Shown here piece after piece: positions 16,955 through 47,428 of a stretch of 64,000 nucleotides of DNA. The notes under the pieces are model-generated. The model worked only from the letters and a program-made list of their open reading frames with translations. It made no database searches and was not told the DNA's origin. Each line of letters starts with the position of its first letter. Within the stretch, counting starts at the first letter, position 1. The translations under genes and the position numbers were made by a program. This stretch comes from Eubacteriales bacterium (GTDB taxonomy: Bacteria; Bacillota; Clostridia; Oscillospirales; CAG-272): positions 4,563 to 68,562 of the forward strand of contig JAZRFK010000039.1 of NCBI GenBank assembly GCA_045661325.1. Reading direction: 5' to 3'.

Positions 16955-18022
16955 TTAGTCCTCTAACTGATAGGTCCAGCCATAGCTGTCGGGAAGAGTT
17001 CCCCACTGGATACCCGTCAAGGAATTATAGAGATGGGCGGTTACCTCACCGATTTCGCCATTGTTGATGGAATACTTCTTGCCCATATAGCAAAGTTCGC
17101 CAATGGGAGAGATAACAGCGGCAGTACCGCAGCCCCAAGCCTCCTCAAGCTTGCCCTCCTCCAAAGCCTTTGCCAGCTCGTCAATGCTCAAGCGGCGCTC
17201 GCTGACGCGATAGCCCTCGGCGCGCAAAAGCTCCAAGCAGGATTTTCTGGTGATACCGGGAAGAATAGATCCGAGAAGCGAAGGGGTAACAACCTCGCCG
17301 TCAATCTTGAACATAACGTTCATAGCGCCGACCTCTTCGATGTACTTGCGCTCAACACCGTCAAGCCAAAGAACCTGCGACTAGCCTGCCTTTCCGGCCT
17401 TCTCACCTGCACGGTTGGAAGCGGCATAGTTACCGCCGCACTTGGCCTCACCGGTACCGCCACGAACGGCACGAACGTCATCTGCCTCGATCATAATCTT
17501 AACGGGGTTAATGCCCTCCTTGTAGTAGCTGCCTACGGGGGAGGTAATGATAACGAAGGTTGCGTGCTTTACCGCGTGCACACCCAAGGTTTCATCGTTT
17601 CCGCACATAAAGGGTCGGATATAAAGGGAGGTGCCGGGGGCAGGGGGCGTCCAATCCTGCTCAAAGGCAATAAACTTGGTTAAAACCTCCATTGCCAAAT
17701 CCTCGGGAATGGTGGGCAGGCAAAGTCTGTCTGCCGAGCGATTCATACGGCGAATGTTCTCGATGGGACGGAACATCTGCACCTTTCCGTCGGCACGGCG
17801 ATAGGCCTTTAAGCCCTCGAAGATTTCGCTTCCGTAATGAAGCGCGGTGCAAGCGGGATGGATAGCCAAGGGGCCAAAGGGAACGATTCTTGCGTCATGC
17901 CAGCCCTCCTCGACAGAATAGTCCATCATAAACATATGGTCGGTAAAATACTTGCCGAAGCCGAGAACAGAAGGCTCGGGCTTTACCGCGGGATTCGGGT
18001 TTCTCGTAATTTTGATTTCCAT
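16955..18022 (-). pseudogene. ilvE: Branched-chain amino acid aminotransferase interrupted by one in-frame TAG (17381-17383)
   Basis: Track ORFs 17381..18154 and 16955..17323 are in the same frame. Translation reads ...GNYAASNRAGEKAGKAG[TAG][28 protein letters not shown]..., colinear with IlvE. ATG 18022 with AAGGAG RBS. Confidence 0.75.
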
Positions 18023-18038: not shown

Positions 18039-18581
18039 TTAGCCCTGATAGTCCTTGCCAAGACGCATAGCGCCGAGGTTGACATCCAGCATATCCGCAC
18101 GCTTGGCGGAGATAACCTTTTTAAGTGCAGCCAGAACCTTCTCTTCATCCTCAAAGGCGCCGCTTTCTGCCAAAACCTTACCCATGATAATCATATTGGC
18201 GAGAGTGGGCGTTTTGTTGTCGGATGCCATCTGGGTGGCAGGGATATAATGCACCGTCACATCGGTACGGTTAACCTTGCGGGAAATGAGGGTGGAATCC
18301 ACGTAAATGGTGCCGCCGGGAGCAACGCTGGACTCATACTTGTCCAAGGAGGGCAGGTTCATCGCAATCAGAACGTCGGGATTCGATACGATGGGAGAGC
18401 CAACGGGAATATCGCTGATGATAACGCTACAGCTTGCCGTACCACCGCGCATTTCGGGACCGTAGGAGGGCAACCAGCTGACGTTTTTGCCGTCATTGAG
18501 GCCCTGGTAAGCTAAGAACTTGCCTGCGAACAGGATGCCCTGTCCACCGAAGCCTGCAAACAAATACTGGGTCGTTTTCAT
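18039..18581 (-). CDS. 2-oxoacid:ferredoxin oxidoreductase gamma subunit
   Basis: [14 protein letters not shown] and [11 protein letters not shown] motifs; ATG 18581 with AAGGAGG RBS. Confidence 0.85.
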
Positions 18582-18594
18582 TTCTGCTTCCTCC

Positions 18595-19338
18595 TTACTT
18601 TCCTGCGCTTCTATCCTTATACACCCCAAGAGGATAATAAGGAATCATTTTTTCATCAATACAAGCCAAAGCCTTTGCAGGCGTCATACCCCAGTTGGTC
18701 GGGCAAGAGGAAACAACCTCTACCAAGGAGAAGCCTTTTCCGTTGACCTGGTTTTCAAAGGCCTTTTTGATAGCCTTCTTGGCATTCTTGACGTTCTTGA
18801 CGTTGTTAACGGCAACACGCTCCAAATACTCGGGGCCGTCCAGCTGAGAAAGCATTTCGCAAACCTTGATGGGATAGCCGCAATGAGAAACGTCACGTCC
18901 GTAGGGAGAGGTCTGGGTGACCTGACCGGGCAAGGAGGTGGGAGCCATCTGACCGCCCGTCATACCGTAAATGGCGTTGTTGATGAAGATAACGGTGATG
19001 TTTTCGTTTCTGGCGGCGCTATGTACCGTTTCTGCCATACCGATGGAGGCAAGGTCGCCGTCACCCTGATAGGTGAATACGATGTTATTGGGGTCGGAGC
19101 GCTTAACGCCCGTTGCAACGGCAGGTGCTCTACCGTGAGCGGCCTCAATCATATCACAGTTAAAGTAGTCGTATGCCATAACCGAGCATCCAACGGGGGC
19201 AATACCAATGGTTCTTCCCTCAATACCAAGCTCGTCCATTACCTCGGCAACCAGACGATGCACGATGCCGTGGGTACAACCGGGGCAATAGTGTAAGGGT
19301 GCATCGGAAAGCGCATGGGGTTTATCAAATACTACCAT
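18595..19338 (-). CDS. 2-oxoacid:ferredoxin oxidoreductase beta (TPP-binding) subunit
   Basis: HYCPGCTHG Cys motif, GDGD TPP-binding region; ATG 19338 with AAGGAGG RBS, 1 nt after the alpha stop. Confidence 0.88.
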
Positions 19339-19339
19339 T

Positions 19340-20401
19340 TCAGTTACCTCCTTTATCGGCGGCCTCAATAGCGGCCAGCACCTCTTCGGGCGAAGGAATC
19401 ATACCGCCCGCTCTGTTGCAAAGAGTGACGGGGGCCTTGCCGTTGACGGCCAGGCGAACGTCCTCAATCATCTGACCCATAGAAAGCTCAACGGACACGA
19501 AGGCTTTAACCTTTTCGGCCGCTGCGGCAAACTGCTTCTTGGGGAAGGGCCAAAGCGTGATGGGACGAATCATACCCACCTTAATGCCCTTGGCTCTTGC
19601 CTCGTTGATGGCGTTCTTGGAAACACGGGCGGCGATACCAAAGGCGGCCACGCAGATTTCCGCATCCTCCATCATATATTCCTCGTAGAGAACCTCGTTC
19701 TCCTCGATGTACGCATACTTCTCGTAGCGCTCAAAGTTGGTTTTTTCCAGCTCTTCGGGCTTCAAGAACAGAGAGTTGACGATGTTATGGGGTCTTTCAA
19801 GCTTGGTACCCGTCACAGCCCAAGGCTTTGCGGGAGCCTCCTCAATATCAAAGGAGAGAGAAACGGGCTCCATCATCTGACCCATCGTGCCGTCTGCCAG
19901 AATCATAGAGGTCATACGGTACTTGTCTGCCAGGGCAAAGCCCTTCACCGTCAGCTCTGCCATTTCCTGCACGGAGGCAGGCGCCAGAACCAACATATGA
20001 AAGTCGCCGTGTGCGCCACCCTTGGTTGCCTGGAAATAGTCGCTCTGAGAGGGCTGAATACCGCCAAGTCCGGGGCCGCCGCGCTGAACGTTTACGATGA
20101 GAGCGGGAAGATCCGCGCCTGCCAGATAGGAGATGCCCTCGCCCTTCAAGGAAATTCCGGGGCTGGAGGAGGAGGTCATCACGCGCTTGCCCGTTGCGGA
20201 AACGCCGTACACCATATTGATGGCGGCGATTTCACTTTCGGCCTGCAAGAAGGTGCCGCCGATTTTGGGCATTCTTTTTGCCATATAAGCAGCAATTTCG
20301 GTTTGGGGGGTAATGGGATAGCCAAAGTAATGACGGCAGCCTGCGATGATGGCCGCCTCGGCAATGGCTTCGTTGCCTTTCATTAATACCTTATCAGACA
20401 T
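19340..20401 (-). CDS. 2-oxoacid:ferredoxin oxidoreductase alpha subunit (KorA/VorB type)
   Basis: [31 protein letters not shown]-terminus typical of OFOR alpha subunits. Confidence 0.88.
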
Positions 20402-20408
20402 TGCTTTT

Positions 20409-20615
20409 TCACCTTTCTACCTTAATGATACAGTCGGGACACATCGTGGCGCAGAAGGCGCAGCCGATGCACGCTTCCTCGTTCACAGCCTTAACGGGAT
20501 GGTGACCCTTTTGGTTAATGGTTTCGGCATCAAGCGCCAGAACCTGCTTGGGACAAGCATCAACACAAAGGCCACAGCCCTTGCATTTTTCAAATTTAAA
20601 GGTTAATTTTGCCAT
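20409..20615 (-). CDS. OFOR delta subunit, 2x[4Fe-4S] ferredoxin
   Basis: CKGCGLCVDACP and CIGCAFCATMCP motifs in 68 aa; AAGGAG RBS. Confidence 0.85.
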   Translation of the reverse strand: MAKLTFKFEKCKGCGLCVDACPKQVLALDAETINQKGHHPVKAVNEEACIGCAFCATMCPDCIIKVER

Positions 20616-20626
20616 GGTATTCTCCT

Positions 20627-21286
20627 TTACATTCGTTTTTGTAATAATATAGGACGGTAGCTATCGCTCTCGGCCGAAAAATACTGCCAAAGCGACTCGT
20701 GCACCGTGGTATACAAAAATGGAATTTGGGCGGCGGCGGCAACCTCCTTGGCGAAGGCAACCGATCCGCGCACATCCTCTTCGGTGGTTTCCGCACCGAG
20801 ATTGGAATTGTTAATCAGGGCGGTAAAGCGAAGGCCGGAGGCCGCCTCAATCTCGTTCATAACGGTCAAAGCACCGTCAAGATCACGCGTCAAGGGACGA
20901 TAGCCGTTCAAGACGAATATCATCTGGTAATCGTTCTCCTCCTTGATGGCAGGAACGAGTCTACCAAGTGCCAAAGCCCCTCTTTCGTCACCTCCCACAT
21001 CCAGCACGGCGCGAAACGATTTATCGTCTGTCACGGCGTAAATTTCAGCGGGAAGCGCGGGAATGTCAACGTTACTGTTGGCATACGCCGAGCAGATAAG
21101 GCGAACGTCTCGCTCCTTCAAGAGCGCTTCACTGTCCTTCGTGCGAAAATAGGGATTGACAATATCGATATCGGCGATAATCACCTTTTCGTGCGTCTTT
21201 CGCAGAGAGAGCGCGTAATTCACTGCGATGTTGGTTTTTCCGCTACCGTAGTGACCCGAAAAAATCGTTATTCGTTTTTCCTGCAT
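20627..21286 (-). CDS. P-loop NTPase (MinD/ParA/CooC-like), function unknown
   Basis: Walker A FSGHYGSGKTNIAVN close to the N-terminus; GGAAGGAG RBS; sits between acyl-CoA synthetase and OFOR genes. Confidence 0.55.
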   Translation of the reverse strand: MQEKRITIFSGHYGSGKTNIAVNYALSLRKTHEKVIIADIDIVNPYFRTKDSEALLKERDVRLICSAYANSNVDIPALPAEIYAVTDDKSFRAVLDVGGDERGALALGRLVPAIKEENDYQMIFVLNGYRPLTRDLDGALTVMNEIEAASGLRFTALINNSNLGAETTEEDVRGSVAFAKEVAAAAQIPFLYTTVHESLWQYFSAESDSYRPILLQKRM

Positions 21287-21325: not shown

Positions 21326-23611
21326 TTATAAAAGATTTCTTTGGATTTTTCCCGTGGCCGTCTTGGGAAGCGCATCACGGAAAACAATAATTCTGGGGTA
21401 TTTATAGGGCGCAGTATGCGTCTTGACGTAATCCTGAATTTCCTTGACAAGCTCGGGCGAGGGCTCTGTTCCCTTCACCAGAACGATGCTGGCCTTGACA
21501 ACCTGGCCTCTGACCTCGTCAGGTGCGGCAGAGACGCCGCATTCCAGAACGTACGGCAGCTCCATAATGACGCTTTCAATCTCGAAGGGCCCGATGCGGT
21601 AACCGGAGGACTTGATAACGTCATCCACGCGGCCAACGTACCAATAGAAGCCGTCCTCATCGCGCCAAGCCACGTCACCCGTATGGTAATAGCCGTCGTG
21701 CTTAACCTCGCGCGTCTTTTCCTCATCGTGATAATACTCGTCAAAGAGACCGCAGGGAGAACCGTTTTCAATCTTGATAACGATTTCGCCCGATTCACCG
21801 ACAGGAACACGACTGCCGTCTGCGGCAAGCAAATCCACGTCATAAATGGGAGCAGGCTTACCCATCGAACCGATTTTATGAGGCGCACCGCGCATATTTC
21901 CGATTATCATCGTGCTTTCGGACTGGCCGAAGCCCTCCAAAATCTGAATGCCCGTTGCCTCCTCGAATTGACGGTAGACCTCGGGGTTTAAGGCCTCGCC
22001 CGCCGTTGTCATATGCTTGACGGAGGAGAGATCGTACTTGGAGATATCCTCCTTGACCATCATACGAAGCATGGTCGGAGGCGCGCAGAAGGTGGTGATT
22101 TGATATTTGGCAAACATAGGCAGAATATCGTCTGCGTGGAAGCGCTCGAAATCGTAAACGAAGGTTGCCGCCTCGCAGAGCCATTGGCCGTAAAGCTTGC
22201 CCCAGAGTGCCTTGGCCCAACCTGTATCCGAAATGGTAAAGTGCAAGCCGTCCGAATCGACGTTATGCCAATACTTTGCGGTATGGAAATGGCCCAAGGG
22301 ATATTTGTGATTATGTACGGCGATTTTGGGATAGCCCGTGGTACCCGAGGTAAAGAACATCAAAAGCGTGTCATTACCGCAGGGGGTATCGGCGGTGCGC
22401 TCAAAATGGGTACTGTAAAGGACGCATTCCTCGTCAAAGCTGCGCCAGCCGTCCTTTTCGCCGCCAACCATAATTTTAATGAGCTTTTTGTCTAACTGCG
22501 CCTCGGCCTTGTCGACCTCCGTGCTGACGCCGCCTCTTCCCGTACAGAGAATGGCCGAAACGCCTGCCGCCTTGAAGCGATATTCAAAATCGTGGTCAAG
22601 CAGCTGATTCATAGCGGGAATGGCGATAGCGCCCAAGCGGTGCAGACCCAGCATTGCGTACCAGAACTGATAGTGTCTGCCCAGAACCAGCATTACGCGG
22701 TCGCCCTTTTTGATACCGAGCGACTTGAAATAGTTGGCCGCACGGCAGGAATTTTTCTTGATGTCGGAAAAAGAGAGTCTGGTTTCCGTTTTATCGTTCG
22801 CCACGTGCAAAAGCGCAAGCTTGCCCGGCTCCTTTTCCGCGATTTTATCCACCACGTCGTAGGCGAAGTTAAAGGTATTCTCGTTTTTGAAGGTGATGGA
22901 GGTGGGGGTGCCGTTTTCGTCCTCCTCGGTATCCACAAATGCGGAGTATACTCTTTCCTTTTCGTCACGCTTGGCCGGACGGCTTTGCACCGCACGAGAG
23001 GGCTGAAGCTCGGGAATGGGCTCGCCCGTGGGATTCAATACAATAGCGTAGAAGCGACAGTCCTCTCCCTCAACGGCTATCATACCGTGGGGCGTGGAGC
23101 TATCGTAATAAATGCTGTCACCGGGGCCAAGAATCTCCACGTGAGAGCCGATTTGCACCTTCAAGTGACCGCTCAACACAATGTCGCACTCCTGACCGTC
23201 GTGCGTGGTTAATTCTATGTCTCTTACCTGCGCCTTTTCGCTATAACGGCTGCACACGTAAAGAGGCTCGGCAATACGGTTTCGGAAAGCAGAGGCCAGG
23301 TTGAAATAGGTCATTCCGTGCGCCTCTTCAATGCGCTGTCCCTGTCCGCTTCTCGTTAAGGTATAAGATTTCAGAGTCGGGCTTTTACCCTCGATAATAT
23401 CCGTTACATCCACGTTGAAGGCGGAGGCACAACGGTAGATAAAGGCAAAGTTCAAGTCCGATTCGCCGTTCTCACAGGCAAGATATTCTGCCTCGGCTAC
23501 GCCCGTTTTGGCGGCCATTTCCGCCACCGTCAAGCCCTCGATTTCGCGAAGCTCACGGATACGGCTTGCCATTTCCTTTATTTTCAAATCAAGTCCCGTA
23601 ATTCCTTGCAT
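21326..23611 (-). CDS. HTH(XRE)-cupin domain fused to an AMP-forming acyl-CoA synthetase (paralog 1)
   Basis: N-terminal HTH (LTVAEMAAKTGVAEAEY), cupin (GDSIYYDSSTPHGM), then adenylation core FFTSGTTGYPK, YHTGD, SSGYRIGPFEIES, PKTATGKIQR. Start set to ATG 23611 (GGAGG RBS), because the longer ORF overlaps the leader terminator. Confidence 0.85.
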   Translation of the reverse strand: MQGITGLDLKIKEMASRIRELREIEGLTVAEMAAKTGVAEAEYLACENGESDLNFAFIYRCASAFNVDVTDIIEGKSPTLKSYTLTRSGQGQRIEEAHGMTYFNLASAFRNRIAEPLYVCSRYSEKAQVRDIELTTHDGQECDIVLSGHLKVQIGSHVEILGPGDSIYYDSSTPHGMIAVEGEDCRFYAIVLNPTGEPIPELQPSRAVQSRPAKRDEKERVYSAFVDTEEDENGTPTSITFKNENTFNFAYDVVDKIAEKEPGKLALLHVANDKTETRLSFSDIKKNSCRAANYFKSLGIKKGDRVMLVLGRHYQFWYAMLGLHRLGAIAIPAMNQLLDHDFEYRFKAAGVSAILCTGRGGVSTEVDKAEAQLDKKLIKIMVGGEKDGWRSFDEECVLYSTHFERTADTPCGNDTLLMFFTSGTTGYPKIAVHNHKYPLGHFHTAKYWHNVDSDGLHFTISDTGWAKALWGKLYGQWLCEAATFVYDFERFHADDILPMFAKYQITTFCAPPTMLRMMVKEDISKYDLSSVKHMTTAGEALNPEVYRQFEEATGIQILEGFGQSESTMIIGNMRGAPHKIGSMGKPAPIYDVDLLAADGSRVPVGESGEIVIKIENGSPCGLFDEYYHDEEKTREVKHDGYYHTGDVAWRDEDGFYWYVGRVDDVIKSSGYRIGPFEIESVIMELPYVLECGVSAAPDEVRGQVVKASIVLVKGTEPSPELVKEIQDYVKTHTAPYKYPRIIVFRDALPKTATGKIQRNLL

Positions 23612-23635: not shown

Positions 23636-23901
23636 ACAAAAAAAGCCCGCCACAAAGATAAATACTTTGAGACGAGCTTGCTAATCAAAACCCGCGGTAC
23701 CACTCAAATTGCGGCAGATGCCGCCCCTCAGGGTCAATCAACCCGTATGCACTAACGCAGCAAACGCGGAGAGGTTCTACTCGATTCTCTTTCTTCCTCT
23801 CGGCTCGGAAGCTACAAACAGGAGGCAGCATTTAGCGACTCACACCAACCGTCGCTTCTCTGAAAAAGCCGCGTTCCTACACTCTTCGTCAACGCCTTTA
23901 T
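23636..23901 (-). promoter_or_regulatory. T-box leader, specifier read as GUA (Val)
   Basis: Minus strand: stem I base GGC-GTTGA-C-GAAG ... CTTC-C-GA-GCC (GA/K-turn), AGAGA bulge, distal loop GGTTGGTG. T-box AATTTGAGTGGTACCGCGGG (23710-23691). Terminator AGCTCGTCTCAAAG / CTTTGTGGCGGGCT + T7. Specifier GTA (23815-23813) followed by purine G directly before the CTTC helix. Confidence 0.8.
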
Positions 23902-23907
23902 AGAGTC

Positions 23908-23936
23908 ATATTACCACACTTTAAAGTATTTGTCAA
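23908..23936 (-). promoter_or_regulatory. Promoter of T-box(Val) leader
   Basis: TTGACA (23936-23931), 17 nt, TAATAT (23913-23908); spacer contains palindrome ACTTTAAAGT (23918-23927). Confidence 0.7.
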
Positions 23937-23981: not shown

Positions 23982-26249
23982 TTAGAGCTTGTTTCTCTGA
24001 ATCTTGCCGCTGATGGTTTTGGGAAGCTCCGTGCGGAATTCCACAATACGCGGATACTTATAGGGCGCGGTATGCTCCTTGACGTAATTCTGGATTTCCT
24101 TTTTCAATGCCTCTGTTGGCTCGGTTCCCTTCACCAAGACGATGCTGGCCTTGACAACCTGGCCTCTGACCTCGTCGGGTGCGGCAGAGACGCCGCATTC
24201 CAGAACGTACGGCAGCTCCATAATGACGCTTTCAATTTCAAAGGGCCCGATGCGGTAGCCGGAGGATTTGATAACGTCATCCACGCGGCCAACGTACCAA
24301 TAATATCCGTCCTCGTCACGCCAAGCGGTGTCACCCGTATGGTACAAGCCATCGTGCCAGGCATCCGCCGTTTTTGCGTCATCACGGTAATATTCTCTGA
24401 AAAGACCGCAGGGAATGCCCTTATCCGTATGGATAACGATTTCACCGATTTCACCCGCAGGAAGCGATTTTCCATCGGCATCGACAACATCTACGTCATA
24501 TTGGGGATTTGCCTTACCCATAGCGCCGATTTTGGGAGTTGTGCCGTAAAGATTTGCAATAGCAAGGGTGGTTTCCGTTTGACCGAAGCCCTCCATAATT
24601 TCAAGACCCGTTGCCGTTTTGAACTGGTTGAACACCTCGGGGTTCAACGCCTCGCCTGCGGTGGTCATATGATGAATGGAGGACAAATCAAATTTGGAAA
24701 GATCGCCGCGAATAAGCATTCTGAGCATCGTGGGCGGTGCACAGAAGGTGGTGATATTGTACTCTGCAAACATAGGAAGCAGATCGTTTTCATCAAACCT
24801 ATCGAAGTCATAGACGAAAACGGCGCCCTCGCAGAGCCACTGACCGTACAGCTTACCCCACAGGGATTTGCCCCAGCCCGTATCGGAAATGGTTAAATGC
24901 AAGCCGTCACGCTCGCAGCAATGCCAATATTTAGCCGTTACGTAATGACCCAAGGCGTAGGTATGCTTATGCGCCGCCATTTTGGGATTGCCCGTGGTAC
25001 CCGAGGTGAAGAACATCAGCGCAAGGTCATCTCCTGCGGAGCAGTCCTCGGGGCGCTCGTACTTGCTGGAAAACAGCTTATACTCCTTATCAAAGTCAAG
25101 CCAGCCGTCCTTGACGCCGCCAACCATCAAAAGCTTTTCCACCTGAGGACATTTCTTGGCGGCACTTTGTGCATAGGTATAGGTATCTCCGTCAGCGGTG
25201 CATACGATGGCCTTGACCCCTGCGGAATTGTATCTGTACTCAAAATCGTGTTCCTTTAACTGATTCGTTGCGGGAATGGCAATCGCGCCCAGCTTATGAA
25301 GAGCCACCATACAGAACCAGAACTGATAATGACGCTTTAAGACCAACATAACCTTATCGCCCCGCTTGATGCCCAAGGAGGTGAAATAGTTTGCCACCTG
25401 GTTAGATGCCTTCTTGATGTCCTTAAAGGTAAAGCGTCGCTCGTTCTTGTTTCTGTCAAGGTGAAGCATGGCGAGCTTCTCGGGATAGCTATCGGCAATG
25501 CCGTCAACGATGTCGAAGCCGAAGTTAAAGCTTTCGGTGTTTTTGAAGCGAATGCTTTGCAGCTGTCCGTTTGCATTTTCCTTAACGTCAAGGAATTTTT
25601 CGCAAACCAGTGCCTCGCTCTTTTTAGCGGCAATAACGCTTTTTCTGACAACCGTTTCATTGGAATTGTCGCCCGACATAACCACCGCAACGAAGGTACA
25701 GTCCTTGCCGTCAACGGCAATCATTCCGTGCGGAATAGAGGAATTGTAGTAGATGCTATCGCCCTCCTCCAAGACCTCGGTATGCTCGCCGACTTGAATT
25801 TTCAGCTTGCCGTTTAAAACAAGGTCAAACTCCTGACCGCTGTGCGTGGTCAGATGAATGGGCTTATTTTGCTGCGATTGAGAATATTCGTAGGTTACGT
25901 AGTAGGGCTCTGCGAGCTTATCCTTGAACTTGGGCGCCAGGTTGGCAATATCAATGCCGTCCTCCTTGGCAGTTCCCTGTCCCTTGCCCTTTCTCGTCAC
26001 CGTATAGGTAGAAAGCTTTGCCGTGCTACCCTCCAGAAGCTCCGTCATTTCAACGCCGAAGGCCAGCGCACATTTATGGATAAAGGAGAACGGAATATCC
26101 ACCGTACCGCTTTCATAAGAAAGATAGGTAGACTCGTCCACATCGGTTTTTTGCATCATATCGTTTACGGAGAAGCCCATAATTTCGCGCAGCTCTTTGA
26201 TTCGAGTTGCGATTTCCGATAACTGACTTAAAGTGTTGTTTGTATTCAT
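23982..26249 (-). CDS. HTH(XRE)-cupin domain fused to an AMP-forming acyl-CoA synthetase (paralog 2)
   Basis: Same architecture as paralog 1: HTH, cupin (GDSIYYNSSIPHGM), FFTSGTTGNPK, YHTGD, PKTISGKIQR; ATG 26249 nine nt after AAGGAGG. Confidence 0.85.
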   Translation of the reverse strand: MNTNNTLSQLSEIATRIKELREIMGFSVNDMMQKTDVDESTYLSYESGTVDIPFSFIHKCALAFGVEMTELLEGSTAKLSTYTVTRKGKGQGTAKEDGIDIANLAPKFKDKLAEPYYVTYEYSQSQQNKPIHLTTHSGQEFDLVLNGKLKIQVGEHTEVLEEGDSIYYNSSIPHGMIAVDGKDCTFVAVVMSGDNSNETVVRKSVIAAKKSEALVCEKFLDVKENANGQLQSIRFKNTESFNFGFDIVDGIADSYPEKLAMLHLDRNKNERRFTFKDIKKASNQVANYFTSLGIKRGDKVMLVLKRHYQFWFCMVALHKLGAIAIPATNQLKEHDFEYRYNSAGVKAIVCTADGDTYTYAQSAAKKCPQVEKLLMVGGVKDGWLDFDKEYKLFSSKYERPEDCSAGDDLALMFFTSGTTGNPKMAAHKHTYALGHYVTAKYWHCCERDGLHLTISDTGWGKSLWGKLYGQWLCEGAVFVYDFDRFDENDLLPMFAEYNITTFCAPPTMLRMLIRGDLSKFDLSSIHHMTTAGEALNPEVFNQFKTATGLEIMEGFGQTETTLAIANLYGTTPKIGAMGKANPQYDVDVVDADGKSLPAGEIGEIVIHTDKGIPCGLFREYYRDDAKTADAWHDGLYHTGDTAWRDEDGYYWYVGRVDDVIKSSGYRIGPFEIESVIMELPYVLECGVSAAPDEVRGQVVKASIVLVKGTEPTEALKKEIQNYVKEHTAPYKYPRIVEFRTELPKTISGKIQRNKL

Positions 26250-30064: not shown

Positions 30065-30140
30065 TGGTGGAGCATAGGGGATTCGAACCCCTGACCCCAA
30101 CACTGCCAGTGTTGTGCGCTCCCAACTGCGCTAATGCCCC
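30065..30140 (-). tRNA. tRNA-Ala (anticodon GGC), CCA encoded
   Basis: Hand-folded cloverleaf, 76 nt: acceptor GGGGCAT/ATGCTCC with the G3:U70 Ala identity pair, anticodon loop CTGGCAG, T-loop TTCGAAT. Confidence 0.9.
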
Positions 30141-30349: not shown

Positions 30350-30424
30350 GGCCCGTTGGTCAAGCGGTTAAGACGTTAGCCTCTCACGCTGAAAACATGG
30401 GTTCGATTCCCGTACGGGTCACCA
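30350..30424 (+). tRNA. tRNA-Glu (anticodon CTC), CCA encoded
   Basis: Hand-folded, 75 nt: acceptor GGCCCGT/ACGGGTC, anticodon stem TTAGC/GCTGA, loop CTCTCAC, T-arm ATGGG-TTCGATT-CCCGT. Confidence 0.88.
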
Positions 30425-43386: not shown

Positions 43387-45021
43387 ATGACTATCGTTGA
43401 TTTACTGACCCAAAACGCCATTCAATACCCGAGTGAAACGGCGCTTGTGGAGCTGAACCCGCAGTTTGAGCCCGGAAGCCGCATCACCTGGAAGGAATAT
43501 TCTTTGACGCAGCCGACGGTTGGCGAGCCCTTCCGCAGAGAAATCACTTGGCTTGATTTTGAGCAGCGCGCCAATCGCTTTGCCAATCTGCTTTTAACCC
43601 GAGGCTGCCGCCGCGGCGACAAGATTGCCATTCTCTTGATGAACTCGATTGAGTGGCTTCCCATTTATTTCGGTATTTTGAAGGCGGGCGCCATCGCCGT
43701 TCCGCTTAACTATCGCTATACCGCCGATGAAATTAAATTCTGCTTGACCAAGGCAGACTGCTCTATGCTGGTTTTCGGCCCTGAATTTATCGGGCGCTTG
43801 GAGGACATTTGCAGCGAGCTTCCCGCTGTCAAGCATATGTTTTACGTTGGCGAGGACTGCCCCTCCTTTGCAGACAGCTACGAGGATATGATTCCCTACT
43901 GCTCCTCCCGCGCACCGCACATTACTCTTTCGGAGGAGGATTACGCTGCCATTTACTTCTCCTCGGGCACCACGGGCTTTCCCAAGGCTATTTTGCACGC
44001 GCACCGCAGCCTGATTCACGCGGCACGCACCGAGCAGAACCATCACGCGCAAACGCACGAGGACGTTTTTCTTTGCATTCCGCCCCTGTATCACACGGGC
44101 GCCAAGATGCATTGGTTCGGCTCCTTGATGGTGGGCGGCAAGGCCGTTCTGCTCAAGGGCGCGCGCCCCGATTGGATTGTTCGCGCGGCCTCCGATGAGC
44201 ACTCCTCCATCGTCTGGCTTTTGGTGCCGTGGGCACAGGATATTCTGGACGCCATTGACAGAGGCGAGATTCGCCTTTCCGACTACGAGCTTGACGCCTG
44301 GCGCTTGATGCACATCGGCGCGCAACCCGTTCCTCCCTCCTTGATTAACCGCTGGTTAAAGATTTTCCCCCACCACAAGTACGACACCAACTACGGTCTT
44401 TCCGAGTCCATCGGCCCCGGATGCGTTCATCTGGGTATGGACAACGTGCATAAGGTTGGCGCCATCGGTAAGGCAGGCTACGGCTGGACGGTTTGTATTG
44501 CAGACGAAAACGGCCACCCCACCAAGCGCGGCGAGGTTGGCGAGCTTTGCGTCAAGGGCCCCGGTGTAATGCTTTGCTACTACAAGGACGAGAAGGCGAC
44601 CGACGAGGTTTTGAAGGGCGACTGGCTCTTTACGGGTGATATGGCAATGGAGGACGAGGACGGCTTTATCTACCTCGTTGACCGCAAAAAAGACGTTATC
44701 ATCACGGGCGGAGAAAACCTCTATCCCGTACAGATTGAGGACTTTATCCGCGCACACGACGCCGTCAAGGACGTTGCCGTTATCGGTCTTCCCGACGCGC
44801 GCTTGGGCGAGATTGCCGCCGCGATTATTGAGGTGAAGCCCGACAAGACGCTGACCGAGGAGGAGGTTAACGCCTTCTGCTCGCGCCTTCCCCGCTACAA
44901 GCGTCCGCGCGCTGTGATTTTCGCGGATATTCCGCGCAATCCCACGGGAAAAATCGAAAAGCCCAGGCTTCGCGAAATGTATTGCGCGGGCGGTCTGGTT
45001 GCCACGCAAATCAAGAACTGA
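43387..45021 (+). CDS. AMP-forming acyl-CoA ligase (class I adenylate-forming enzyme), substrate unknown
   Basis: YFSSGTTGFPK, TGDMAMEDEDGFIYLVDRKKD, ITGGENLYP, PRNPTGKIEK motifs. Confidence 0.8.
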   Translation: MTIVDLLTQNAIQYPSETALVELNPQFEPGSRITWKEYSLTQPTVGEPFRREITWLDFEQRANRFANLLLTRGCRRGDKIAILLMNSIEWLPIYFGILKAGAIAVPLNYRYTADEIKFCLTKADCSMLVFGPEFIGRLEDICSELPAVKHMFYVGEDCPSFADSYEDMIPYCSSRAPHITLSEEDYAAIYFSSGTTGFPKAILHAHRSLIHAARTEQNHHAQTHEDVFLCIPPLYHTGAKMHWFGSLMVGGKAVLLKGARPDWIVRAASDEHSSIVWLLVPWAQDILDAIDRGEIRLSDYELDAWRLMHIGAQPVPPSLINRWLKIFPHHKYDTNYGLSESIGPGCVHLGMDNVHKVGAIGKAGYGWTVCIADENGHPTKRGEVGELCVKGPGVMLCYYKDEKATDEVLKGDWLFTGDMAMEDEDGFIYLVDRKKDVIITGGENLYPVQIEDFIRAHDAVKDVAVIGLPDARLGEIAAAIIEVKPDKTLTEEEVNAFCSRLPRYKRPRAVIFADIPRNPTGKIEKPRLREMYCAGGLVATQIKN

Positions 45022-45103
45022 TTTGCCGTTTTTCCCTCTGTTTCACATCTGACTGCAAGCAATTTTCTGCTTCTGCATCCCTCTTTGAAAGGAATTCTTA
45101 CAT

Positions 45104-46849
45104 ATGAAAAAGCTTTTACTTGGAAACGCCGCCGTTGCGCGCGGCGCATACGAGGCGGGCGTCCGTTTCGTTTCCTCTTATCCCGGAACCCCCAGCACCG
45201 AAATCACCGAGGAAATGGCAAAATTTCCTGCTGAGGACGTTTTCGTTGAGTGGGCTCCCAACGAAAAGGTTGCCGCAGAGGCCGCTATCGGCGCCTCTAT
45301 TGGCGGTGGCCGCGCAATGAGCTGCTGCAAGCACGTTGGCCTCAACGTGATGGCTGACCCCGTTTTTACCGACAGCTATATCGGCGTTGGCGGCGGTCTT
45401 TGCTTCTGCGTGGCAGATGACCCCGGTATGCACTCCTCCCAGAACGAGCAGGACTCCGCCCATTACGCGAGACCTGCCAAGATTCCGATGCTTGAGCCTG
45501 CGGATTCGGCAGAATGCAAGGAGTTCACCAAGCTGGCATTCTCTCTTTCCGAGGAATTCGATACCCCTGTCTTTATCCGTTTGTCCACCCGCATTTCCCA
45601 CTCGCAGAGCATGGTTGAGCTTTGCGAGCGCGAGGAAGCGCCCTTGAAGGACTACGAAAAGAATATCCCCAAGCACGTGATGATGCCTGCTATGGCCATC
45701 AAGCGCCACGTGGTTGTGGAAGAAAGAACCGAGAAGCTGAAGGCCTTTGCCGAAGCCTCCCCTCTCAACACCGTTATCGACAACGGCAGTGAGATTGGCG
45801 TTATCACCGCAGGTATTTCTTATCAATACGCCGTAGAGGCCCTGGGTGAGCGCGTTAACTACTTGAAGCTCGGTATGGTTTATCCTCTGCCCGATGCACT
45901 TTTGAAGAGCTTTGCCGCCTCCTGCAAGAAGGTTTACGTGATTGAGGAGTTAGACCCCTTTATTGAGGAATATCTCCGTGCGCTTGGCGTTACGGTTATC
46001 GGCAAGGAAGCCTTTACCCTTCTGGGCGAGTACACCCCCTCTATGATTCGCGCCGCCGTTTTCGGCGAGGAAAAGTGCGCGCACGAGGTACCCGCAGAGG
46101 CACTTCCTGCCCGTCCTCCCGTTCTTTGCCCCGGCTGCCCGCACCGCGCGACCTTCTACGTTTTGAAGAAGCTCGGTCTGACGGTTTCCGGCGACATCGG
46201 CTGCTACACGCTTGGCGCCGTTGCTCCCTTGGCCTCGGTTGACACCACCATTTGTATGGGCGCCTCCATCAGCGCCGCGCACGGTATGGCAAAGGTCAGA
46301 GGCGCGGAATTTAACAAGAAGCTGGTTTCGGTTATCGGCGACTCGACCTTTATGCACTCGGGTATTACGGGTCTTTCGGACATCGTTTACAACAAGGGTG
46401 CGAACACCGTCATTATTCTCGACAACTCTATCACGGGTATGACCGGCCATCAGGACAACCCCACCACAGGCAAAACCATTCGCGGCGAGGCCACCAAGCA
46501 GGTTGATTTGATTCTGCTTTGCAAGGCACTCGGCATTGATAGCGTTTCCGTTGTTGACCCCTTTGACCTTGCCGCCTTTGAGAAGACGGTGAAGGAGGAG
46601 GTTGCCAAGGACGAGCCCTCCGTTATCATCGCACAGCGCCCCTGTGCGCTTCTGAAATCCGTGAAATACACGGGACATTGCGAAATCAACGACGATTGCC
46701 GCCGCTGCAAGCTCTGTATGAAGCTCGGCTGCCCTGCCATCAGCGTTGATGGGGACGGCAGAATGAAGATTGACACCTCGCTTTGCAACGGATGCGGTCT
46801 TTGCGTTTCCGTTTGCCCCTTCCACGCCATCGAAAAGAAAGAGGACTAA
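45104..46849 (+). CDS. iorA: Indolepyruvate:ferredoxin oxidoreductase alpha subunit
   Basis: CPGCPHRATFY, TPP region GDSTFMHSG, C-terminal CRRCKLCMKLGCP and CNGCGLCVSVCP clusters. Confidence 0.88.
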   Translation: MKKLLLGNAAVARGAYEAGVRFVSSYPGTPSTEITEEMAKFPAEDVFVEWAPNEKVAAEAAIGASIGGGRAMSCCKHVGLNVMADPVFTDSYIGVGGGLCFCVADDPGMHSSQNEQDSAHYARPAKIPMLEPADSAECKEFTKLAFSLSEEFDTPVFIRLSTRISHSQSMVELCEREEAPLKDYEKNIPKHVMMPAMAIKRHVVVEERTEKLKAFAEASPLNTVIDNGSEIGVITAGISYQYAVEALGERVNYLKLGMVYPLPDALLKSFAASCKKVYVIEELDPFIEEYLRALGVTVIGKEAFTLLGEYTPSMIRAAVFGEEKCAHEVPAEALPARPPVLCPGCPHRATFYVLKKLGLTVSGDIGCYTLGAVAPLASVDTTICMGASISAAHGMAKVRGAEFNKKLVSVIGDSTFMHSGITGLSDIVYNKGANTVIILDNSITGMTGHQDNPTTGKTIRGEATKQVDLILLCKALGIDSVSVVDPFDLAAFEKTVKEEVAKDEPSVIIAQRPCALLKSVKYTGHCEINDDCRRCKLCMKLGCPAISVDGDGRMKIDTSLCNGCGLCVSVCPFHAIEKKED

Positions 46850-46864
46850 GAAAGGATTTCTGCT

Positions 46865-47428
46865 ATGAACGTGATGATTGTTGGCGTTGGCGGTCAGGGA
46901 ACCCTGCTTGCCAGCCGCATTTTAGGAAATACCGTTATCGACCTTGGCTATGACGTGAAGGTCTCCGAGGTTCACGGAATGAGCCAAAGAGGCGGAAGCG
47001 TTTGTACCTACGTAAAATTTGGCGAAAAGGTCTATTCTCCCATCATTGACGCGGGAGAGGCAGACATCATTTTGGCCTTTGAGACGCTGGAGGCTTACCG
47101 CGCCCTTCCCTTCTTGAAAAAGGGCGGCAAAATGATTGTAAACAACCAGAGAATCAACCCTATGCCCGTCATTACGGGCGCTGCGACCTATCCCGAAAAC
47201 ATCTTGGAGAAGCTTTCCGCCGTTGCTGACGTTACCTCGCTTGACGCATTGACGCTGGCCGAAGAGGCAGGAAGCGGAAAGGCCGTTAACGTGGTGCTTC
47301 TCGGCGTTCTCGCCAAGAACACCGACATTCCCAAGGAGGCTTGGCTTCGCGCCGTAGAGGCAACCGTTCCTCCGAAGTTTTTAGACGTTAATCGCCGCGC
47401 ATTTACGCTCGGCTATGAGCTTGCATAA
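46865..47428 (+). CDS. iorB: Indolepyruvate:ferredoxin oxidoreductase beta subunit
   Basis: MIVGVGGQGTLLASRILG N-terminus, size, position after iorA. Confidence 0.85.
   Translation: MNVMIVGVGGQGTLLASRILGNTVIDLGYDVKVSEVHGMSQRGGSVCTYVKFGEKVYSPIIDAGEADIILAFETLEAYRALPFLKKGGKMIVNNQRINPMPVITGAATYPENILEKLSAVADVTSLDALTLAEEAGSGKAVNVVLLGVLAKNTDIPKEAWLRAVEATVPPKFLDVNRRAFTLGYELA

Follow-up and report, generated by a model that had tools for sequence, protein, structure and literature searches.

The window, i.e., the whole 64,000-nt stretch of DNA analysed here, carries on its minus strand a gene array in the order promoter P1, an Ile T-box, gene A, promoter P2, a Val T-box, gene B, a gene of a P-loop protein, the genes of the delta, alpha, beta and gamma subunits of an OFOR (VorDABC, called VOR below) and ilvE, with the coordinates collected in Table 1. 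Genes A and B are about 60% identical, and in Pfam searches both show the domain order HTH_3/HTH_19, Cupin_2, AMP-binding and AMP-binding_C. The initial annotation had described the gene behind the second leader as an acyl-CoA synthetase fusion, which is borne out by these domains in the open reading frame of gene B; that annotation did not include gene A, the paralogous fusion next to it on the upstream side, or the Ile (AUC) T-box of gene A. The leaders before gene B and its orthologues are called Val leaders below and those before gene A and its orthologues Ile leaders, and each of the two classes has its own strong promoter. P2 is of the sigma-70 type, with TAATAT and an upstream TG, and matches the consensus at 10 of 12 positions.

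Table 1. Features of the gene array and of its two leaders (coordinates are those of the window).
Feature	Position	Strand	Remarks
Promoter P1	26572-26544	-	TTGACA 26572-26567; TGaTACAAT 26552-26544
Ile T-box leader	26531-26305	-	specifier AUC 26444-26442, then A; precedes gene A
Gene A	23982-26249	-	HTH-cupin::acyl-CoA synthetase, paralogue of gene B
Promoter P2	23936-23908	-	-35 box TTGACA 23936-23931; 17-nt spacer; extended -10 box TGgTAATAT 23916-23908
T-box leader before gene B	23665-23901	-	full-length RF00230 match
Stem I	23803-23893	-	K-turn (GUUGA.../...CGAGC), base helix GAAG/CUUC, specifier loop, AG bulge, distal loop
K-turn and base helix, 5' half	23893-23884	-	GUUGACGAAG; pairs with CUUCCGAGC at 23811-23803
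AG bulge	23861-23855	-	AGAGAAG
Stem I distal loop	23850-23840	-	GGUUGGUGUGA / GGUUGGUG
Specifier	23815-23813	-	GUA (Val), then purine G at 23812; directly 5' of the CUUC helix (CM register)
3' helix and K-turn half	23811-23803	-	CUUCCGAGC; partner of GUUGACGAAG
Stem II	23801-23769	-	GAA...AGUA S-turn motif; from the CM alignment
Stem IIA/B element	23768-23752	-	from the CM alignment
Stem III	23725-23711	-	between GAGGG and AA (RRRxG-stem-AA motif)
T-box sequence	23710-23691	-	AAUUUGAGUGGUACCGCGGG; UGGU bulge 23702-23699
Discriminator/antiterminator	23665-23710	-	3' strand CUCGUCUCAAAG at 23676-23665, common to the terminator
Intrinsic terminator	23677-23638	-	hairpin and U7; mutually exclusive with the antiterminator
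Gene B ribosome-binding site	23620-23615	-	GGAGGA; ATG at 23611
Gene B	21326-23611	-	761 aa, HTH(XRE)-cupin::AMP-forming acyl-CoA synthetase
P-loop protein	20627-21286	-	219 aa; only the Walker-A region resembles MinD/ParA/Mrp ATPases
OFOR (VorDABC)	18039-20615	-	Pfam POR_N, PFOR_II, TPP_enzyme_C, POR
OFOR delta (ferredoxin)	20615-20409	-	68 aa
OFOR alpha (VorB-type)	20401-19340	-
OFOR beta	19368-18595	-
OFOR gamma	18629-18039	-
IlvE	16955-18022	-	matches branched-chain aminotransferase models

The leader before gene B is a genuine T-box, ordinary and feature-complete as an RNA. In an Rfam cmscan of the whole window it matches RF00230 with 98.5 bits against the gathering score of 93 and with an E value of 1.8e-20, which is far beyond chance; the alignment (23901-23665, minus strand) covers the full length of the model (positions 1-219 of 219), and it is the sole T-box over the gathering score in that scan. 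With the T-box elements defined as in a 2020 review (PMC7583486), the promoter, the Stem I with its K-turn, the AG bulge, the distal loop, the T-box sequence with its UGGU bulge and the terminator with its U7 tract, all of which had been read from the sequence in the initial annotation, are found on the minus strand where they had been placed. The predicted folds have −10.7 kcal/mol for the antiterminator and −17.7 kcal/mol for the terminator. The terminator fold being the more stable, termination would be the default, as expected of a transcriptional T-box. Note that the terminator was missed by a simple terminator scanner and was revealed by direct folding.

The initial annotation had also predicted that the specifier is GUA, and the CM alignment indeed places GUA followed by G, and not UGU, at that position. 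To see how far this holds among relatives, we used 80 loci that encode relatives of gene B and that come from named genomes, all of them being MAGs of gut or rumen Clostridia (Acutalibacteraceae, Oscillospiraceae, Christensenellaceae and others). Of the 78 loci with sufficient sequence 5' of the B-orthologue, 71 have a T-box core immediately before that gene. When 72 orthologous leaders are aligned with MAFFT, 70 have GTA in the codon column and two (L034 and L075) have GTC, i.e., a Val codon in every one of them. The base helix that sets the codon register covaries among the 72 orthologues, GAAG/CUUC being replaced by GAAA/UUUC, GGAG/CUCC or GGGG/CCCU, and double (compensatory) changes are present in 11 of the 13 predicted pairs of Stem I; these compensatory changes support the helix. 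Moreover, the helix above the specifier loop has 6.06 bp with its own partner compared with 4.07 ± 0.15 bp with non-cognate partners taken from other leaders. An equivalent promoter is present upstream of the orthologous Val leaders, 69 of which could be anchored on the −35 box, and of 73 Val leaders at least 61 have a hairpin followed by a U-run according to a crude detector. From all this we regard it as nearly certain that the leader is a Val-specific T-box.

It is noted that in the specifier loop of the window leader the 3' strand reads GUU where the conserved GAA is expected, and that its internal loop is small. Most of the orthologous Val leaders that were checked (L004, L012, L027, L034, L075 and L079) score under the Rfam gathering score, at 73-85 bits; the three that were explicitly scored have 73-84 bits against the cutoff of 93, with E values of 1e-14 to 1e-17 (for example, L034 8700-8943). 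The class is thus probably under-annotated by routine annotation.

The Ile T-box before gene A is full-length in a permissive Rfam scan, with 80.6 bits and an E value of about 1e-16 to 1e-17, and since 80.6 bits is below the gathering score of 93 it is not reported by a default Rfam scan. Its specifier loop is of the textbook form, GAAA...AUC-A-CUUC, and ATC is present in 49 of 49 orthologous leaders that precede A-type genes. About half of the Ile leaders have C after AUC rather than the usual purine (for example, in L005 6047-6150 and L010 6093-6196). By eye, no terminator hairpin is seen between the stop codon of gene A and P2, so that an RNA polymerase coming from P1 can reach the VOR and IlvE genes only by reading through the Val T-box as well. 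In the permissive scan of the whole window no third T-box was found, including before the AMP-binding/IorAB genes at 43.4 kb.

Now we consider the enzymes. The best NCBIfam model for both A and B is MbcS, with 454 bits for A and 432 bits for B against the equivalog cutoff of 850, and we therefore treat the two as related enzymes that are probably alike in function and not as MbcS orthologues. The best PDB match of gene B is 3ETC (E value of 1.3e-178, residues 244-758). This entry is MacsMa of M. acetivorans, the preferred substrate of which is 2-methylbutyrate (PMC10455477), and MbcS of S. aureus is selective for 2-methylbutyrate and isobutyrate (PMC10026030). We propose that gene B would encode an isobutyrate-CoA ligase and gene A a 2-methylbutyrate-CoA ligase. 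A 300-nt stretch with 86% DNA identity between A and B was considered as a trace of gene conversion and rejected as such, because it encodes a segment that is invariant throughout the family, for which purifying selection suffices.

The assignment of the two substrates can be looked at by comparing the 72 enzymes behind Val T-boxes with the 48 behind Ile T-boxes, where a column is taken as discriminating if it is at least 90% conserved within each class with at most 5% crossover. There are 14 such alignment columns, of which only three lie in the catalytic region, and the only perfect one among these three is the residue after the DTGW motif, which is Ala in all of the 72 Val-class enzymes (Ala466 in gene B) and Gly in all of the 48 Ile-class enzymes (Gly460 in gene A). 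The 2-methylbutyrate enzyme 3ETC has Gly at this position (SGWGK). In acetyl-CoA synthetase the corresponding residue, which follows GW in GWVTGH, is taken to line the acyl pocket, and by analogy the bulkier Ala would suit isobutyrate, which is one carbon smaller than 2-methylbutyrate. The other 11 columns lie in the HTH/linker region (residues 11-117), which suggests that the N-terminal domains of the two classes have also diverged in function.

Downstream of gene B, the alpha subunit of the OFOR passes NF005507, the VorB model for 3-methyl-2-oxobutanoate (keto-valine), with 541 bits against a cutoff of 399, and the beta (with TPP), gamma and delta subunits match generic OFOR models below their cutoffs. 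Where the sequence 3' of the B-orthologue is long enough, VOR comes after it in 41 of 53 loci, and VOR together with IlvE in 35 of 46; the gene of the P-loop protein lies between B and the VOR genes in 41 of 53, and the protein could be a VOR maturation factor. An A-type paralogue is directly upstream of the B-orthologue in 47 of 65 loci. In about a quarter of the loci the Val T-box and B stand alone with no VOR downstream. Variant arrangements are also present (L042, L050, L052 and L076; L044, L047 and L066), with A abutting B without a Val T-box in some and tandem B-like copies in others. The ilvE gene of the window has an in-frame TAG at 17381-17383 (minus strand), where 45 of 45 orthologues, all intact, have a Tyr codon (TAT or TAC); the TAG is due either to a true nonsense mutation or to an error of assembly.

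Two other kinds of unit with AMP-binding ligases were observed. At 43387-47428 on the plus strand of the window there is an unfused AMP-binding acyl-CoA ligase of 544 aa, with no T-box upstream, and after it come an IorA-like protein (581 aa) and a 187-aa protein that is probably IorB-like, the two being putative subunits of an indolepyruvate:ferredoxin oxidoreductase; this unit may serve an analogous route from arylacetates to aromatic amino acids. At L027 15755-19930, adjoining the Ile/Val operon, a canonical Leu (CUC) T-box of 117 bits is followed by a LeuA-like gene (HMGL-like and LeuA allosteric domains) and then by a gene in which a xylose-isomerase-like TIM barrel is fused to an AMP-binding ligase. 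Similar units are present in L032, L043, L048, L054, L057 and L058, and divergently upstream in L012, L014, L017, L018 and L021, and they may represent a third branch, from isovalerate to Leu.

With regard to the tRNAs, no tRNA-Val or tRNA-Ile gene was found in the 64-kb window or in 60 related loci. The window has genes of tRNA-Ala(GGC) at 30065-30140 (minus strand) and tRNA-Glu(CUC) at 30350-30424 (plus strand), which are unrelated to the T-boxes. With regard to expression, the share of the words sampled from the region is at most 8% in any sequencing run. A related strain contributes one metatranscriptome contig that runs from the leader into gene B, where carry-over of DNA is possible.

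Based on the above, we think it likely that the Val T-box controls a conserved operon that makes valine from isobutyrate, and the pathway would be as follows. RNA polymerase would start at P2 and, by default, stop at the terminator. When uncharged tRNA-Val accumulates, its anticodon UAC would pair with the GUA specifier in Stem I and its free NCCA end with the UGGU bulge, which implies discriminator A73, so that the weaker antiterminator would be stabilised and the polymerase would read through into gene B, VOR and IlvE. The product of gene B would then convert isobutyrate to isobutyryl-CoA, VOR would carboxylate isobutyryl-CoA reductively, in a ferredoxin-dependent reaction, to 2-oxoisovalerate, and IlvE would transaminate 2-oxoisovalerate to valine. 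Gene A behind the Ile T-box would feed 2-methylbutyrate into the same VOR and IlvE steps, giving isoleucine. The anatomy of the RNA, the register and conservation of the specifier, the gene content and the synteny are direct observations, and the response to tRNA, the substrates of the enzymes and the direction of the flux are what we infer from them, the anabolic direction from the starvation logic of T-boxes and from the AMP-forming type of the ligase.

T-boxes normally control genes of aminoacyl-tRNA synthetases, of biosynthesis or of transporters, and the initial annotation had therefore called an acid-activating enzyme an unusual target. This stands as long as gene B is taken singly and falls when the operon with VorDABC and IlvE is considered as an amino-acid biosynthesis (salvage) pathway: as the first step of a pathway of amino-acid supply, gene B fits the normal logic of T-boxes.

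Isoacids, i.e., branched short-chain acids, are growth factors for fibre-degrading anaerobes of the rumen and gut, and it has been known since the 1960s from biochemical work that they are converted to Val, Ile and Leu. According to the references listed in PMC7356843, which include Allison & Peel 1971 and Robinson & Allison 1969, isoacids are carboxylated in the rumen, with isobutyrate giving Val, 2-methylbutyrate giving Ile and isovalerate giving Leu. For Prevotella bryantii, a 2020 paper described the reverse reaction as 'not proven yet' (PMC7709123).

Besides this route from isobutyrate to valine, other explanations have to be considered. It could be argued that the ligases make branched acyl-CoA primers for the branched-chain fatty acids of the membrane, because MbcS, their best NCBIfam match, has its documented role in such priming in S. 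aureus (PMC10026030). By contrast, judging from the gene order, in most loci the ligases share a transcript with VOR and IlvE, and the Val and Ile T-boxes tie the expression to tRNA charging rather than to lipid status. We thus consider it unlikely that priming is the function, with a dual role in amino-acid and lipid supply still conceivable, especially where B stands alone.

Somewhat less likely still is that the T-box is real and Val-specific and the operon catabolic, with the branched-chain amino acids converted by IlvE to 2-oxoacids, by VOR to acyl-CoA and then to branched short-chain acids. IlvE and VOR are reversible and work oxidatively in amino-acid fermenters, and gene content alone does not set the direction. 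However, if this were the case, it would be expected that the operon is switched on when valine is in excess, which is opposite to induction by uncharged tRNA, i.e., by valine starvation. Moreover, AMP-forming synthetases drive the reaction from acid to acyl-CoA, and the closest characterised relatives of A and B are acid-activating salvage enzymes. Fermenters, by comparison, conserve ATP by ADP-forming synthetases or by a phosphotransacylase with a kinase.

That the specifier is mis-assigned (UGU, UUG or UUU in a shifted frame), or that the leader answers several tRNAs, would be in line with the atypical loop with GUU for GAA and the small internal loop, but it is very improbable, since only the GUA/GUC triplet is conserved among the 72 leaders, with the bases 5' of it varying freely (TTT, TCT, ATC, GCT, TAT and others) and the 3' base being G or A, since the helix that sets the register covaries, since the CM register is the same in the window and in the Val leaders of L004, L034 and L075 (GUC+A in L034 and L075 occupying the model positions that GUA+G has in the window), and since the paralogous leaders have AUC at the same position; the alternative frames were accordingly rejected. 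It is equally hard to believe that this T-box is degenerating or has lost its function, the real regulator being the fused HTH-cupin, as might be thought from the DNA-binding-type domain on each regulated enzyme and from the several orthologous leaders below the gathering score, because the promoter, the specifier, the T-box sequence and the terminator are kept across genomes in which B is only about 70-79% identical to that of the window, and because no conserved palindrome or operator was found at the 69 Val and 48 Ile promoters, whether they were anchored on Stem I or on the −35 box, the conservation there being limited to UP-element A-tracts, the −35 box and the extended −10 box.

A broader proposal can be put forward tentatively, namely, that isoacid salvage in these bacteria is modular and addressed by tRNAs, with the uncharged tRNA of each branched-chain amino acid calling for its own isoacid-CoA ligase, with VOR and IlvE shared, and with the HTH-cupin as a second input. 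An Ile/AUC T-box would then go with the Gly-type 2-methylbutyrate ligase and a Val/GUA T-box with the Ala-type isobutyrate ligase, and the Leu/CUC T-box branch with the LeuA-like protein and the TIM-barrel::ligase fusion would be the counterpart in many relatives. The HTH-cupin would sense the isoacid or the product, or would autoregulate, giving a combined control by need and availability. If this is true, T-box specifiers serve as natural labels from which the substrates of uncharacterised paralogues can be read, and one Gly/Ala gatekeeper residue sets the specificity for C5 versus C4.

In our literature search we found no T-box before an isoacid-CoA ligase/VOR/IlvE operon; as the main 2008 survey of the T-box regulon (Vitreschak) is outside the coverage of that search, an earlier mention is possible. 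Full-text searches found neither a description of the HTH-cupin::ligase fusion nor, for Firmicutes, a gene set for the route from isoacids to branched-chain amino acids or its regulation. An important point to note is that through the T-box specifiers a conserved operon, as well as either of its two paralogous ligases, can be assigned to a particular amino acid, and that an old physiological observation on isoacids is thereby made open to specific experiments.

Finally, we compare the locus with known systems. With the T-boxes of the B. subtilis tyrS type and the Leu T-box of the ilv-leu operon, the Val leader shares the K-turn, the specifier loop with codon and purine, the AG bulge and the distal loop, as well as Stem II with the S-turn, Stem IIA/B, Stem III, the UGGN bulge and the competing terminator and antiterminator, and it likewise precedes an operon of amino-acid supply. 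It differs in that the proposed target is the salvage of isoacids by reductive carboxylation, rather than an aminoacyl-tRNA synthetase, the de novo ilv/leu route or a transporter, in that two specificities, Ile and then Val, are nested in one gene array with their own promoters, in the specifier loop, the 3' strand of which has no GAA, and in the scores of most orthologous Val leaders checked, which are under the Rfam cutoff. The rumen isoacid route requires acid activation, ferredoxin-dependent carboxylation and transamination, and the operon has exactly these three predicted activities; the route was established by biochemical work, whereas the gene set and the regulation are read here from sequence. 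The AMP-binding catalytic region of A and B aligns end to end with 3ETC, and the KYW motif with the pocket residue Trp259 of MacsMa is also kept. Unlike MacsMa and MbcS, A and B carry about 235 extra N-terminal residues with the XRE-type HTH and the cupin, and their genes adjoin VOR and IlvE under T-box control, with no lipid context.

PuuR-type proteins are HTH-cupin regulators, and in BirA an adenylating enzyme carries a repressor domain. A and B resemble BirA in combining an adenylate-forming enzyme with a domain of DNA-binding type that has a putative regulatory role. The N-terminal region has the same domain order as the HTH_3 and cupin_2 regulators (for example, PDB 1Y9Q), an XRE-type HTH and then a cupin, with weak similarity to the solved HTH-cupin regulators (E value of 2e-4). 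What is unusual at this locus is the regulated pathway and the transcription-factor-like fusion, not the RNA switch.
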